UHGV virus genome: UHGV-0187156
Source: a virus
Direction: 5' to 3' (one strand)
Length of the DNA: 6,220 nucleotides
Shown: piece after piece, positions 1,974-6,211 of the stretch
Position numbering within the stretch: position 1 is the first letter of the stretch
How the letters are laid out: the number at the start of each line of letters is the position of its first letter
The notes under the pieces: generated by a model
Told to the model about the DNA's origin: nothing
Database searches by the model: none
What the model saw: only the letters and a program-made list of their open reading frames with translations
Program-made: the position numbers and the translations under genes

Positions 1974-2261
1974 ATGTACGCTGTACTCTTATCTGCTTTA
2001 ACACTTATTGCTAAATTCTTCATTAAAGGCACTGTAATAAAATTCGTTTTTTTTTCAGCTCTTGCGTACTTCGTGATCGAAATGGTGCCTTACATAATCA
2101 CATTTTTTATGGGCGGAAATTATCTTGCTGGTGTATTTGATCAAATGCCGTCGGGTATTCTTTACTTTCTGAATGTGATTGATTTCAAGACATCCTTTCA
2201 AATCGTCCTGTCCGCTTATGTGGCGCGTTTTGTGGTAAGACGCTTACCGGTGGTGGGCTGA
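1974..2261 (+). CDS. VI: minor coat protein (pVI-like)
   Basis: 95-aa strongly hydrophobic protein directly after gene III. AGGTGA SD at 1965-1970 overlaps the gene III stop. Its stop overlaps the gene I start (TGATG), as in Ff. Confidence 0.72.
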   Translation: MYAVLLSALTLIAKFFIKGTVIKFVFFSALAYFVIEMVPYIITFFMGGNYLAGVFDQMPSGILYFLNVIDFKTSFQIVLSAYVARFVVRRLPVVG

Positions 2262-3241
2262 TGGCTATAAACCTCTATGTGGGCCTACAGGGCGCTGGTA
2301 AATCATACGAAAGTGTAAAATCCGTTGTCCTCCCAGCTCTTGCTCAGGGACAGCGTGTTGTATCTAATATTGAAGGTCTTGATTCTGAGAAGGTATACGC
2401 CTATGTAAAAAAAATATTTAAGGTAGATGAATCATCAATCGGCGAGCTTGTGTATGTAGAAGACGACCTCATAAAGCGAGATGATTTTTTTCCAACTGAG
2501 GATGGTGATTCACAATACGTAAAATACGGTGATCTGGTTGTAATTGATGAAGCGTGGAGATTTTTTGATAGTGAAAGAACTCTGTTACCTAATCACAAAC
2601 AATTTTTCGGTATGTTGCGCCATTATGGCTGTCAAATGGCTGTCATTAATCAAACAAACGGTTTATGCAAAAGTCTGCTCGGTAGAATACAGACAACCTA
2701 CAAAATGCACCGTGCGTTTTCTGTCGGTTTTAAAACAAGGTACTCAATAATTAGTTACAGCGGCTCTGAGATGCGAAAGCAAGATATTTACAAAACTCAG
2801 GCTTTTCTAAAATACAACCCTGAAATATTCAGTCTCTATAAATCAGAAAAGCAAAAAGCAGCTACAAAACTAGATAAGAGACAAAATATATGGTCGGTAT
2901 TCGGTTTGTTATTACTAACGATCGGCGTGCTGGCTGTCTCTGCTACTTTTCTTTTTAAAAAATTCTACGGTGTGACTCCTGAACGCTCAGTTCCTGCGTC
3001 ATCTACTCCTTTACATCAACAAGTACCAGTGCCTACTTCGAATTTTATAGATACAACACAAAAAGCAACTTCCTACAGATATGTAGGTTTCTATCAGAAA
3101 GATAATCAGCGTTTTGCTCTACTGAGGGATGAAAATCAACTTCTAGTAATCATCCCTTACTCAAGATGCACAAATGAAGGTCGCCGAACCTCTTGTGAGC
3201 ATGAAAACGAAAAAGTAACTTTTTATGGTGGTGTGAAATGA
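2261..3241 (+). CDS. I: assembly ATPase (pI / Zot-like)
   Basis: 326 aa. Walker A GLQGAGKS near the N-terminus, Walker B-like LVVIDEAW, single transmembrane segment IWSVFGLLLLTIGVLAVSATFLF, periplasmic C-terminal tail. Stop overlaps the gene IV start (ATGA). Architecture recalled from M13 pI. Confidence 0.88.
   Translation: MAINLYVGLQGAGKSYESVKSVVLPALAQGQRVVSNIEGLDSEKVYAYVKKIFKVDESSIGELVYVEDDLIKRDDFFPTEDGDSQYVKYGDLVVIDEAWRFFDSERTLLPNHKQFFGMLRHYGCQMAVINQTNGLCKSLLGRIQTTYKMHRAFSVGFKTRYSIISYSGSEMRKQDIYKTQAFLKYNPEIFSLYKSEKQKAATKLDKRQNIWSVFGLLLLTIGVLAVSATFLFKKFYGVTPERSVPASSTPLHQQVPVPTSNFIDTTQKATSYRYVGFYQKDNQRFALLRDENQLLVIIPYSRCTNEGRRTSCEHENEKVTFYGGVK
3211..3223. repeat. dispersed motif copy AAAAGTAACTTTT (perfect)
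   Basis: Exact 13-mer at the 3' end of gene I, encoding ENEKVTFYGG, ending 15 nt upstream of the gene IV ATG. Confidence 0.9.
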
Positions 3242-4452
3242 AAAAAATACTCTTAACTATGACTTTTCTCTTAAACTCCTTTTTCGTGAATGCAACGAAT
3301 ATTGACTTCTCGATAACGGATGCAGGCCTTAACGATGTGATAACCCTCGTATACTCGGACATCTTAAAAAAGCCGTTTATGTTAGATCCTGCAATAGTTG
3401 AGAAACCACAAAAAGTTACTTTTTACTTCACAAAAAATCAGGACTTCGAAAAAACTTTTTATTCCTACCTGAACAGCCTCGGTTACGAAGTGAAAACAAA
3501 ATCAGGTGTCGATTTCATCAGGATTGCTCCTGAGCGTGTTATGGCGCCTCCAAAAACATACGTATACGTTTACCAACCTTTTCACCGTACTGTTTCTTAT
3601 CTTTCAGACATCATTTCGAATTCATTACAAAACAACTTTTCAACTGTAACCGGGATTGGTGATGGGAACATGTCGCCCGGAACTGTAGCACCGGATAGCG
3701 CCGGGCAGCTGCTTAGCAGAACTGGCGATAGACTTGTATTTAATGGCACTCAAGCAAAAATAGAAGAGCTCAAAAAGCTACTAACAGAAATTGATGTACC
3801 TAGTCAGTCAGTAGAGATAACCGGGTATCTATACGAGGTGGCCACAAATAAGAAAAATGGATCAGGTATGCAGCTTGCTGCAAAACTACTTTCCGGAAAA
3901 TTCAAGATCGGCATGGGTACAACACGGGGTTACAGTAACTTCATCTCTCTTTCAACGGGTAGTGTCGATGCTCTCTATGAGCTGTTCTCAACTGATAACC
4001 GGTTCACGGTTGTATCTGCTCCACGTTTGACCGTTGATTCTGGCGAGAAAGCATCTTTTGCCGTTGGTGATGATGTGCCTGTACTCAATACAACAACAAT
4101 TACAGATGGAACTGTACAGCAGGGGGTTTCTTATCAAAGCGCTGGTGTTCTCTTCAATGTTTCTCCGGTTGTTATATCATCAAAAATAAGACTTAACTTC
4201 TCCCAAGAGCTTTCAAGTTTCGTTGAGACAACAACAGGCGTAAACGACTCACCAACCAAAACAAAACGCACAATTCAAAGCGTTGTAACTGTAGACAATG
4301 GCTCTATCATTGTTGTTGGTGGGTTAGCTTCAAGAAAGAAATCTGATAACAAAACGGGTCTCAGTTTTTTGCCTGATATTTTTGCGCAAAATTCAGACTC
4401 TGATGAGCATACTGATTTGATAGCTGTCATTCAGGTAAGAAAGCTGGGCTAG
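3238..4452 (+). CDS. IV: secretin (pIV-like outer-membrane export channel)
   Basis: 404 aa with N-terminal signal-like sequence. C-terminal region matches recalled M13 pIV secretin motifs (VVSAPRLTVDSGEKASFAVGDDVPV versus ILSVPRILTLSGQKGSISVGQNVPF; VVGGLASRKKSDNKTGLSFLPDI versus LLGGLTDYKNTSQDSGVPFLSKI). Confidence 0.88.
   Translation: MKKILLTMTFLLNSFFVNATNIDFSITDAGLNDVITLVYSDILKKPFMLDPAIVEKPQKVTFYFTKNQDFEKTFYSYLNSLGYEVKTKSGVDFIRIAPERVMAPPKTYVYVYQPFHRTVSYLSDIISNSLQNNFSTVTGIGDGNMSPGTVAPDSAGQLLSRTGDRLVFNGTQAKIEELKKLLTEIDVPSQSVEITGYLYEVATNKKNGSGMQLAAKLLSGKFKIGMGTTRGYSNFISLSTGSVDALYELFSTDNRFTVVSAPRLTVDSGEKASFAVGDDVPVLNTTTITDGTVQQGVSYQSAGVLFNVSPVVISSKIRLNFSQELSSFVETTTGVNDSPTKTKRTIQSVVTVDNGSIIVVGGLASRKKSDNKTGLSFLPDIFAQNSDSDEHTDLIAVIQVRKLG
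3411..3423. repeat. dispersed motif copy AAAAGTTACTTTT (perfect)
   Basis: Exact 13-mer inside gene IV, encoding QKVTFYF in frame. Confidence 0.9.
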
Positions 4453-4500
4453 CACGATGCCGGAGCGCCAGCGACGAAAGAGGGATAGACCAGCTTTCTT
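4437..4500. repeat. long imperfect hairpin spanning the gene IV stop (11-bp arms, about 42-nt interior)
   Basis: AAGAAAGCTGG at 4437-4447 is the reverse complement of CCAGCTTTCTT at 4490-4500. In Ff the packaging-signal hairpin lies immediately downstream of gene IV. Confidence 0.45.
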
Positions 4501-4640: not shown

Positions 4641-4672
4641 GGTCGTTGGGGAGGCATTTTTCCCCAACGACC
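4641..4672. repeat. perfect 12-bp stem hairpin with 8-nt loop
   Basis: GGTCGTTGGGGA (4641-4652) is the exact reverse complement of TCCCCAACGACC (4661-4672); loop GGCATTTT. Confidence 0.6.
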
Positions 4673-4697
4673 TGTTAAGCTGGTTTTGCCTTAAGTG

Positions 4698-4708
4698 CCG
4701 CGAAGCGG
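4698..4708. repeat. GNA-triloop mini-hairpin CCGC-GAA-GCGG containing GCGAAGC
   Basis: The heptamer GCGAAGC (4700-4706) is the classic exceptionally stable DNA mini-hairpin, here extended by flanking C:G pairs. Confidence 0.5.
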
Positions 4709-4792
4709 TTTGGGGTTCTAGTGACACCCAAACTTTGGTATGGGATCGCATACTTTTTCACACCCCGCACCGTCCGGAAGTTGACTTTCTAC

Positions 4793-4987
4793 CTAACTTT
4801 TTTTTTCGGCTAAACTGCTGAAATATGCCTCCGTACCGTCAAGGTCGCCGTTTTCCATCAGGTATAATGCAAGCTGAGTCCAGGTGATGCTTTTCTTGTA
4901 TGCGAAGCTAAGTTCAATTGCTTTTTGCTCTAGCCGTTTCTTAGTCGATAACGGCACCCGCATTGAGATAGTTTTTTTTGTATTCAT
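4793..4987 (-). CDS. hypothetical small DNA-binding protein, ribbon-helix-helix-like (candidate transcriptional regulator)
   Basis: 64 aa (MNTKKTISMRVPLSTKKRLEQKAIELSFAYKKSITWTQLALYLMENGDLDGTEAYFSSLAEKKS). Minus-strand context AGCAGGAGGATTC-ATG gives an AGGAGG SD 4 nt before the start. N-terminal basic strand (TISMRVP) followed by two predicted helices fits the Arc/MetJ/CopG ribbon-helix-helix layout. Divergent from gene II. The longer start at 5053 in the ORF track lacks an SD. Confidence 0.5.
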   Translation of the reverse strand: MNTKKTISMRVPLSTKKRLEQKAIELSFAYKKSITWTQLALYLMENGDLDGTEAYFSSLAEKKS

Positions 4988-5023
4988 GAATCCTCCTGCT
5001 CTTACTTTACAGCAGACTTGCAG

Positions 5024-5052
5024 TTGCATAAATAATAGAATATGTGTATACA
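5024..5052 (+). promoter_or_regulatory. candidate sigma70 promoter for gene II (TTGCAT, 17-bp spacer, TATACA)
   Basis: -35-like TTGCAT at 5024-5029 and -10-like TATACA at 5047-5052 with a 17-bp AT-rich spacer, about 40 nt upstream of the gene II ATG. The -10 overlaps the 8-bp palindrome TGTATACA (5045-5052). Sequence-only prediction. Confidence 0.35.
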
Positions 5053-5092
5053 TAGATACAGGGATTCAGGGATACGGGTAAGGTGCTAAATA

Positions 5093-6211
5093 ATGTACTT
5101 TTTTGATTGGCTAGACATCTCTCAGGATTTTGGAACGGATTTACCCATCAAGAGTGATTTAGTGTATCTGCGCCTCAATACAGTAACTGGTGAGCATGGG
5201 GCTGTGAATCAACCAACCATCCGCCATCAGGGCAGTTTTTGCGATCAGCTCATGATAAGCCTTAAGGGCTCAGAATTGCGCGTGTCCGGGAACCCGTCAC
5301 GCTGGGGTCGTCTTGATAATCTGTTTGGTCATGCCACAATTGATCAGTGTGTAGCTGTATATAACGGGGTGCTTCGGTCTATGGGGTTGCCTGAATTTAC
5401 CAAATGTACAAAAACACTTGTCGTACAGGGTGACAGTAACGAAAAAGTAACTTATACCAGCAATGGTGCGATGATAAGAGAAATTCACATCACCACGAAT
5501 ACGGCTGTTGGTCAGGGGAATGTGCTTGATTACATAAAGGCATTAAGCACTCAGAGATACAGAAACTCTACTCCCTATCTGTACCCTAATGGTCGCTCTG
5601 TTGATTGGCGCACCAAGTCAGGTAGTACAAGCCTTGTTTATCCGACCGTTTACGATAAAGCAAATAACCTTATTGATAAAAATTTAAATAAGATAATTAA
5701 GACTTTTGGCGAAAATTCGCAAGAGCATAAGTATTTAAAGAAACTAATTGAATATTGCCAAATCAACGGTGTAGTACGATTTGAGCAAAAGTTAAAAAAT
5801 GAATACCTTCGTAGAAACAATATGCGTTTCTGGGGTATTGCAAACTTTGATCACTTGGAAGTATTACAGAATCAATTCCTTGATATTGATCAGAAACTAA
5901 CGGTGACAGCCATGAACTTTGAAACTATCTCAGATCATCTTATTGCTGAAGGTATCGTAAACAATACAAAAGCCAGCATTACAACAGCTATGTATGCTTA
6001 TTTGTGGATGCAGGGTAAGGAATTTGATTTTTCAAAATCGTCAGTAAAAACGCATCGAGCACGCTTAAGAAAAATCGGTATTGATATTGCTATGCCTTGC
6101 AATATTTCCCAGTTCCAGCCAGTGGTGGTAAAAAATGTACGTCAAATCGAACGTCAGACATTAACCGCGCCAGCCTGGTATAAACAACCGCAATTCCTCA
6201 TGGCCGTCTAA
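5093..6211 (+). CDS. II: rolling-circle replication initiator (pII-like nicking endonuclease)
   Basis: 372 aa with AAGGTG SD 6 nt upstream. Recalled similarity to M13 pII (GVVRFEQKLKNEYLRR versus GLVRFEARIKTRYLKS). Positioned after the IG, as in Ff. Confidence 0.85.
   Translation: MYFFDWLDISQDFGTDLPIKSDLVYLRLNTVTGEHGAVNQPTIRHQGSFCDQLMISLKGSELRVSGNPSRWGRLDNLFGHATIDQCVAVYNGVLRSMGLPEFTKCTKTLVVQGDSNEKVTYTSNGAMIREIHITTNTAVGQGNVLDYIKALSTQRYRNSTPYLYPNGRSVDWRTKSGSTSLVYPTVYDKANNLIDKNLNKIIKTFGENSQEHKYLKKLIEYCQINGVVRFEQKLKNEYLRRNNMRFWGIANFDHLEVLQNQFLDIDQKLTVTAMNFETISDHLIAEGIVNNTKASITTAMYAYLWMQGKEFDFSKSSVKTHRARLRKIGIDIAMPCNISQFQPVVVKNVRQIERQTLTAPAWYKQPQFLMAV
5443..5455. repeat. dispersed motif copy AAAAGTAACTTAT (one mismatch)
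   Basis: Inside gene II, encoding SNEKVTYT. Shares the extended left flank AACGAAAAAGTAACTT with the 1051 and 3211 copies. Confidence 0.75.
5912..6211 (+). CDS. X: pX-like protein from an in-frame internal start within gene II
   Basis: In-frame ATG at 5912 preceded by GGTGA (5902-5906). Product begins MNFETISD, comparable to the MNIYDDSA start of M13 pX. Ff gene X is the C-terminal third of gene II translated independently. Confidence 0.45.
   Translation: MNFETISDHLIAEGIVNNTKASITTAMYAYLWMQGKEFDFSKSSVKTHRARLRKIGIDIAMPCNISQFQPVVVKNVRQIERQTLTAPAWYKQPQFLMAV

Follow-up and report, generated by a model that had tools for sequence, protein, structure and literature searches.

Several ribbon-helix-helix repressors act on arrays of short boxes repeated at a fixed period. 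The ParG protein binds as one dimer per ACTC box, with the boxes separated by 4-base-pair (bp) spacers (an 8-bp period), arranged in both direct and inverted orientation at its own promoter, and bound cooperatively (PMC3130281, PMC3413123). MetJ binds tandem 8-bp met-boxes (PMC3413123), and omega binds contiguous, non-palindromic 7-bp heptads, in direct or inverted orientation, over promoters that control copy number (PMC9499535). The locus analyzed here lies in UHGV virus genome UHGV-0187156, a stretch of 6,220 nucleotides (nt) that is called the window throughout and that has the gene order of a complete filamentous phage (inovirus). Its gene II (5093..6211, plus strand) encodes the rolling-circle replication initiator pII (Pfam G2P_X_C, 7.8e-27; Phage_CRI, 3e-5), and a small divergent gene (4793..4987, minus strand) encodes a protein of 64 amino acids (MNTKKTISMRVPLSTKKRLEQKAIELS...). 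The 105-bp control region between the two genes contains an operator-like array of four short boxes. We lean, modestly, toward the reading that this array is a phased-box operator in the style of ParG, MetJ and omega, bound by dimers of the ribbon-helix-helix-like 64-residue protein, a candidate repressor of both gene II and its own gene.

The window was compared with four further lineages of the same phage type, designated here by genome handles: L003 and L027-30 (pII 95% and small protein 77% identical to the window), L019-24 (92% and 69%), L025/26 (90% and 70-72%) and the Klebsiella group L168-170 (80% and 45%). The array occupies positions 5046 to 5075 of the plus strand and consists of four 6-bp boxes of the form G/A-N-A-T-W-C (GTATAC, AGATAC, GGATTC and GGATAC), separated by 2-nt spacers (at, ag and ag); in an 8-nt register, positions 5048 to 5079 read ATACATAG ATACAGGG ATTCAGGG ATACGGGT. 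Four copies of ATWC at an exact 8-nt period (5048-5075) occurred in none of 200 shuffles, for a pattern that was defined after the sequence had been viewed. The array is also the top periodic 32-nt segment in each of four genomes from independent lineages, always at lag 8, with lag-8 self-matches of 0.75 in the window, 0.88 in L019, 0.71 in L025 and 0.71 in L003, and 0.61-0.70 for the runner-up segments.

An earlier note on this DNA had described two separate elements in the region, a perfect 8-bp palindrome, TGTATACA, at 5045-5052, and a tandem repeat of CAGGGAT (5059-5065 and 5067-5073, with T5066 between the copies) that is followed by ACGGG at 5074-5078. Both are present exactly there, and the surroundings are indeed a divergent control region, running from the start of the minus-strand small open reading frame (ORF; ATG at 4987-4985) to the gene II ATG at 5093. 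Neither element rises above chance alone, but the larger pattern that holds both of them does. The window has 27 perfect 8-bp palindromes, compared with 28.1 +/- 5.2 in shuffles, and the exact word TGTATACA occurs in 25 of 200 shuffles (12%). An exact 7-mer repeated within 0-3 nt is found in 72% of shuffles, and the Tandem Repeats Finder (TRF) score of the CAGGGAT repeat, 35, is equaled by five other arrays in the window. Nor is the 8-bp palindrome conserved, having become TGTATACG in L003 and GGTATACA in L019 and L025; its core GTATAC, which is contained in box 1, is alone invariant. The palindrome and the repeat are better described as box 1 and boxes 3-4 (from 2/3 to 4) of a single array.

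The control region is evidently under strong purifying selection, to judge from its rate of change relative to gene II. Fourfold-degenerate sites of gene II are 39-57% identical between the window, L003/L027, L019/L021 and L025 lineages, which is near saturation, and the 105-bp control region is 71-92% identical between those same lineages. The 32-nt array counted from 5048 keeps 23-29 of its 32 positions between lineages (72-91%; binomial P from 1e-4 to 4e-7 versus the fourfold sites). The plus-strand ORF at 4884-5081 is interrupted in L019 and L025 by an indel of 1 nt, and the region is therefore non-coding. What is preserved in four lineages is the phase, and some of the changes in the array move toward the box consensus. 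The substitutions in L019 sharpen the phase, giving GTATAC, AGATAC, GAATAC and GGATAC, each followed by ag (ATACAGAG ATACAGGA ATACAGGG ATACAGGG in the 8-nt register). The Klebsiella phage L168 retains three boxes (GTATAC and GTATAC separated by ct, then ag and GGATTC), so that three to four contiguous boxes with a fixed 8-bp period are found in all five lineages. Within the boxes, conservation falls on positions 1, 3, 4 and 6, and positions 2 and 5 vary, which leaves a palindromic skeleton G.AT.C. Symmetric conservation of this kind would be expected from a dimer with two-fold symmetry that reads double-stranded DNA.

A second site, overlooked in the earlier note, carries two boxes in inverted orientation (GGATTC and GAATAC, separated by at) at 4980..4993 on the minus strand, where it covers the start codon of the small gene and is a candidate autoregulatory operator, O_R. 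The word GNATWCNNGNATWC matches the window at exactly two places, in the array (5062-5075, plus strand) and at this site (4980-4993, minus strand); the shuffle mean is 0.06 and at least two matches occurred in 1 of 200 shuffles. The site is also recovered as a 12/14 inverted repeat and is invariant in four lineages. Scanning with a position weight matrix for single boxes placed it 7th of all 16-mers and 4th outside the array, which is weak taken alone; the stricter two-box word told more. The locus thus has boxes in both direct and inverted orientation, as phased ribbon-helix-helix operators do. A second palindrome, ATTCATGAAT (10 bp, 4982-4991, with an 8-bp core TTCATGAA from 4983), lies over the small-gene start codon inside the inverted site.

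These properties bear on an explanation in which there is no dedicated regulator at all. In that case the conserved stretch would be a promoter, a transcription start and a leader with Shine-Dalgarno-like AGGG repeats that serve ribosome standby or mRNA stability, and the 8-nt period would have arisen by slippage duplication. The conserved stretch does include -35-like and -10-like hexamers and a Shine-Dalgarno sequence, the repeat is not significant in a single sequence, and in L019 and L021 AGGG and GGGG run into the Shine-Dalgarno sequence. On the other hand, the phase has been kept in four lineages whose synonymous sites are saturated, with some changes toward the box consensus; the two-box word is found again, in inverted orientation, at the other gene; and a regulator gene adjoins the gene II control region in every relative examined, with an insertion intervening in phage If1. 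We consider the absence of a regulator improbable.

The preferred reading, a phased-box operator, gains from comparison with the known systems. The O_F/parH region of plasmid TP228, on which ParG acts, likewise has an 8-bp period and boxes in direct and inverted orientation, and O_F lies at or downstream of the -10 element of the promoter under control, with ParG regulating its own synthesis. The two differ in that the boxes here are of the G-N-A-T-W-C type with 2-nt, G-rich spacers and number four plus two, whereas ParG uses ACTC boxes with AT-rich spacers, eight plus twelve in number; in addition, the phage system has no ParA partner and no partition role, and there is no detectable sequence homology. 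MetJ shares with the phage locus the 8-bp period, pseudo-palindromic boxes in 2-5 tandem copies and a similar ribbon (PMC3413123), but it needs S-adenosylmethionine as co-repressor, is a 104-residue host protein and recognizes a different box, AGACGTCT. The conjecture in the earlier note that the repeats have an operator-type architecture therefore stands, in that their layout resembles known ribbon-helix-helix operators, with an 8-bp period running across the predicted -10 and +1. As a whole, that note was right about a regulatory region of the operator kind; it went astray in seeing more than one element, in missing the inverted site and in entertaining a role for the initiator, which is unlikely (see below).

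Small replicons provide a parallel in function. Omega of pSM19035 and CopG of pMV158 are small ribbon-helix-helix repressors that limit the replication gene of a small replicon, as is proposed here for the 64-residue protein. The omega period is 7 bp and the period here is 8 bp. The small gene is divergent from gene II, unlike copG, which is co-transcribed with repB. Among inoviruses, an omega-like ORF has been noted in the episomal phage PMBT54, from annotation only (PMC10534721).

The promoters of the control region can be placed only as candidates. For gene II, TTGCAT at 5024..5029 would be the -35 element and TATACA at 5047..5052, inside box 1, a non-canonical -10 lacking the final T. These hexamers lie 17 nt apart, and no other -35/-10-like pair keeps its geometry in all lineages; the arrangement TTGCAK-N17/18-TATAC is retained in all five, with TTGCAG-N17-TATACC in L168, and TTGCAT is invariant within GTTGCATAAATAATA in four lineages. 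The -35 that the earlier note apparently assumed, TTGCAG at 5018-5023, is not conserved, and TTGCAT takes its place. The candidate promoter would put box 1 on the -10 element and boxes 2-4 across about -3 to +17. For the small gene, a weak candidate picked out by eye lies at 5004..5032 on the minus strand (-35 TTTATG at 5032-5027, a 17-nt spacer, and -10 TAAAGT at 5009-5004); relatives retain TA-N-AGT at the -10 (TAGAGT, TACAGT), and this promoter would set the inverted site at about +4 to +17. The Shine-Dalgarno sequence of gene II is AAGGTG at 5080..5085, 7 nt before the ATG, with GGTGCT conserved in relatives; that of the small gene is AGGAGGA at 4991..4997 (minus strand), invariant in all window-type relatives.

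With the boxes so placed, a well-known precedent in the Ff phages has to be weighed. The Ff single-stranded DNA-binding protein, gVp, has a 16-nt operator in the gene II leader; the sequence that it binds, GUUUUUGGGGCUUUUC, lies downstream of the mRNA 5' end and ahead of the Shine-Dalgarno sequence (PMC5405960). Like the array, that operator lies between the gene II promoter and the Shine-Dalgarno sequence, is G-rich and is predicted to be unstructured (PMC5405960). The G-rich repeats in the gene II leader could accordingly be a translational operator for pV, the gene V-type protein, with the 14-mer at the start of the small gene as a second pV target. The phage encodes such a protein (86 amino acids, Pfam Phage_DNA_bind, 1-261), boxes 2-4 fall in the leader if TATACA is the -10 element, the array is predicted to be unpaired, and both 14-mers are sense-oriented in their own mRNAs. 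Several features argue against this explanation. The Ff operator GTTTTTGGGGCTTTTC has no match in the window at up to 3 mismatches, and the pattern here, without sequence similarity to it, is phased and palindromic and extends upstream of the likely transcription start; box 1, the best conserved, would thus lie upstream of the transcript. G-runs vary in number, with three GGG in the window against one in L168. Symmetric conservation and the perfect palindrome GTATAC have no rationale in single-stranded RNA recognition, and the palindromic boxes of phage L171 (CTCATGAG) point to a reader of double-stranded DNA. Control by pV through these repeats, which the earlier note had also raised, is in our estimate unlikely.

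Two other ways in which the gene II leader might act were tried and rejected. RNA structure gave a z-score of -0.56 and no covarying pair, and a G-quadruplex is not consistent with the G-runs, which are not conserved in L168.

The 14-nt word GGAUUCANGNAUAC occurs in sense at the 5' ends of both divergent mRNAs, where one copy covers the small-gene start codon and the other precedes the gene II AUG by 18 nt. Conceivably, though with little probability, this word is a shared RNA operator through which a single phage protein, either pV or the 64-residue protein, represses both genes at the level of translation, in addition to the phased-box DNA operator, making a dual DNA/RNA switch. If so, the dual switch would add an overlooked regulatory layer to the classical non-integrating filamentous phages, of which IKe and If1 carry unannotated homologues of the small gene.

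Whether the phased-box operator has a plausible reader depends on the small divergent protein. Its gene is real, as indicated by the strong Shine-Dalgarno sequence and by a coding pattern in the codon-position identities between the window and L019 (38, 39 and 25 of 44). The protein belongs to phrog_2503, to which no function is assigned and which has no Pfam family, and a profile search of 1.8 billion proteins yielded a family of relatives of 58-86 residues. It probably has a ribbon-helix-helix-like fold, according to structural models and the family alignment. In AlphaFold2 (AF2) models, with predicted local distance difference test (pLDDT) values of 79-82, the chain is extended over residues 1-12, forms helices at 13-30 and 36-46, and has a further helix at its C-terminus. 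The layout is that of the fold, with an N-terminal strand in which polar and hydrophobic residues alternate (K-K-T-I-S-M-R-V-P), followed by two helices with a short turn between them, and the family alignment retains the pattern. This strand, KKTISMRVP, resembles the ribbons of MetJ (KKITVSIP), ParG (KRVNVNFD) and CopG (KRLTITLS) (PMC3413123). Searches for a significant match to a curated ribbon-helix-helix family or a solved protein gave none: Pfam returned no match for the small protein or 13 family members, a profile search of PDB sequences with the family found nothing relevant, and Foldseek of the model against the PDB had no match. Pairwise hhalign comparisons gave non-significant probabilities of 10% with CopG, 7% with ParG and 0.5% with omega, in which the strands nevertheless align in register. 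The L168 small protein, only 45% identical to that of the window, retains the outward-facing ribbon residues T, S and R, and its phage retains GNATWC boxes.

Comparison with CTXphi and with more distant relatives indicates how the control motif is related to the regulator. In CTXphi, the RstR/rstA pair and its intergenic region ig-2 resemble the present locus in that a regulator gene is divergent from a Phage_CRI-family initiator gene, beside the plus origin, with repressor-specific repeats between them. RstR is a helix-turn-helix protein. The window has this arrangement of divergent regulator, Phage_CRI initiator and adjacent plus origin, and fetched relatives show the same layout with helix-turn-helix regulators. 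The regulator of the window is not of the helix-turn-helix (Xre/cI-like) kind as far as Pfam can tell, since the small protein had no such match there. Further differences from CTXphi are that the phage has no integration module and that its operator would be an array of short phased boxes.

The intergenic repeats are specific to the type of regulator, with one exception that is described below. Small proteins with the T/S/R ribbon (the window type and L168) accompany GNATWC boxes upstream of gene II; the L171 small protein, with the ribbon RATYNVT, accompanies TCATGA-type palindromes (such as CTCATGAG); and several helix-turn-helix regulators accompany CCATATGYGG or GGGCACT-type repeats. In the genomes compared, then, the control motif changes with the type of divergent regulator. 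The phased-box reading is preferred because the motif tracks the regulator in this way and because known ribbon-helix-helix proteins use the same architecture. The assignment of the small protein as box binder, the promoter positions and the direction of regulation are all inferred.

A host DNA-binding protein, either nucleoid-associated or a global regulator, might instead read AT-rich DNA phased by GTATAC and ATAC and so set gene II expression. The invariance of GTTGCATAAATAATA and GTATAC would fit such a role, as would the recurrence of a related word, TTGYATRCAT, upstream of gene II among distant phages whose regulators differ (If1, L004, L018, L031-38). Against it, inspection by eye found no acceptable site for LexA (CTGT-N8-ACAG), CRP, Fur or IHF, and L171, like several phages of enteric hosts with helix-turn-helix-type regulators, has a wholly different motif. 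We judge a host reader very unlikely.

Words related to this motif recur among the other phages as well. L031-L038, L018, L004/5 and If1 have 2-5 same-orientation copies of TTG[CT]AT[AG]CAT(G) upstream of gene II, spaced about 20-24 or 44 nt apart. The window words TTGCATAAAT (5024-5033) and GTGTATACAT (5044-5053), with a spacing of 20 nt, may be what is left of this older arrangement.

The last candidate reader is the initiator itself. Direct repeats beside an initiator gene are the classic architecture of iterons, and the inverted repeat of the plus-strand origin, GTATGGGATCGCATAC, shares GTAT/ATAC half-words with the boxes; the repeats could then be pII sites, used for autoregulation or as an auxiliary origin element. 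The origin, however, is found elsewhere, on the far side of the small gene from the array. Its core at 4697-4757 consists of a hairpin, GTTTGGG-gttctagtgaca-CCCAAAC (4708-4733, loop GTTCTAGTGACA), followed by the inverted repeat (GTATGG..GCATAC, 4740-4755), and it is 72-92% identical in nucleotide sequence in every fetched phage with an If1-type pII, including If1 itself (5052-5088), with stems that change by compensatory substitutions. At least three types of origin inverted repeat (GTATGG, ACCGTGG and GTGCGG) assort independently of the motif upstream of gene II. The GTATGG type accompanies GNATWC boxes (the window, L168), TCATGA boxes (L171) and CCATATGYGG (L011), and the ACCGTGG type accompanies TTGTATRCATG (If1, L031) and GGGCACT (L173). 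The array does not show the similarity to, and covariation with, the nick hairpin and inverted repeat that would mark a plus-origin or pII site. Binding of pII to the control repeats, another suggestion of the earlier note, is highly improbable, because the origin lies elsewhere and its inverted-repeat type is uncoupled from the control motif.

If the boxes are read by the small protein, the 105-bp intergenic region would act as a two-way promoter and operator. Each dimer of the 64-residue protein would set its two-stranded beta-ribbon (KKTISMRVP), whose residues T6, S8 and R10 point outward, in the major groove of one box, and dimers would coat the array cooperatively, as ParG, MetJ and omega do on their boxes. 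The coated array would block RNA polymerase at the gene II promoter and thereby limit the level of the replication initiator, and binding at the inverted site would dampen expression of the small protein.

Several observations weigh against such a switch. The box pattern was, as stated, defined only after inspection of the sequence. A scan of the window for consensus promoters and terminators found nothing, and the promoter hexamers are non-canonical. The inverted site is absent from L168; elsewhere it overlaps the Shine-Dalgarno element as well as the MNT codons, so that translation could explain part of its conservation. With both 14-mers in the sense of their own mRNAs, a reading at the RNA level fits equally well. 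The covariation of motif and regulator has its exception in If1 and the L031 group, which share the TTGTATRCATG motif despite different ribbons. Moreover, covariation does not separate pV from the small protein, because the two have diverged in step with each other and with pII.

The type of switch is a familiar one, and the protein family from which it would be built is undescribed. If the phased-box reading is true, small episomal filamentous phages of Enterobacteriaceae (from Salmonella, Klebsiella, Citrobacter and E. coli assemblies) use a plasmid-style ribbon-helix-helix repressor of copy number, a mode of control different from the two that are well known, repression by helix-turn-helix proteins in temperate inoviruses and regulation through pV alone as described for Ff. 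It would also supply a function for the phrog_2503 gene, which was missed in IKe, PEar4 and If1, some of these genomes having been sequenced decades ago. The number of boxes (3 or 4) may tune phage copy number and the duration of carriage by the host, and the 30-bp array and 64-residue protein would make a compact, orthogonal repressor/operator pair.

The unannotated phrog_2503 homologues lie on the minus strand beside the plus origin in IKe (6613-6801; L002:878-1066) and in If1 (L039:5128-5310). Another is present in PEar4 (6530-6718), and a deletion in PEar1 truncates its copy. The control regions of IKe and PEar1, the latter with a truncated small gene, are identical and are uninformative as a natural knockout. 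In If1 (L039), the gene II control region is removed from the small-gene start by about 1.9 kb (roughly 5311-7240) of DNA that contains ORF348 and looks like an insertion that split the divergent module; the words TTGTATACAT and CTGCATACAT remain beside gene II, at 7244 and 7288. The small genes of L019 (2375-2581) and L025 (3001-3182) differ at 6 amino acids and are identical at 44/44 third positions over 44 codons, and the fourfold identity of gene II between these two phages is only 0.57. The pattern suggests recent recombination in the small gene followed by replacement-only change.

The remainder of the window is organized as expected for a filamentous phage. Gene II stops at 6211 and gene V starts at position 1, and the window looks like a whole circular genome. 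After gene V come small coat ORFs, a gene III-like gene (731-1966), gene VI (DUF2523; 1974-2261), the Zot/gene I homologue (2261-3241) and the secretin/gene IV homologue (3238-4452), and an intergenic region separates gene IV from the 64-residue minus-strand ORF. The nearest named phage is If1, with a pII identity of 55%. The same element is represented by a 6219-bp "plasmid" of Citrobacter sp. MGH105 (NZ_CP073051.1, "plasmid unnamed3"), which is 86% identical across a 611-nt query (window 4790-5400) and whose small gene is annotated as hypothetical, and by contigs of about 6.2 kb in Klebsiella, Salmonella and E. coli assemblies and in metagenomes. The phage, without an integration module, is known as 6.2-kb free contigs or as a plasmid. 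Scanning metagenomes with the invariant 17-mer GTATTCATGAATCCTCC gave 120 chance matches and no relative, a scan of viral contigs retrieved only the already known L003 contig, and complete E. coli genomes had no match.

Three structures upstream of the plus origin complete the picture of the intergenic region. A strong hairpin at 4437-4500, with 15-nt arms straddling the gene IV stop, sits where IKe has its morphogenetic signal. A second strong hairpin, at 4641-4672 between the minus and plus origin elements, has a perfect 12-bp stem (GGTCGTTGGGGA/TCCCCAACGACC). The 60-nt hairpin region at 4562-4621 matches Erwinia phages PEar1-6 with 92% identity and IKe (6336-6392) with 87%; the IKe match overlaps the annotated stem-loop of the minus-strand origin (6333-6385). 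No other part of the window resembles described phages closely at the nucleotide level, and the resemblance suggests that the minus origin has been exchanged as a module.

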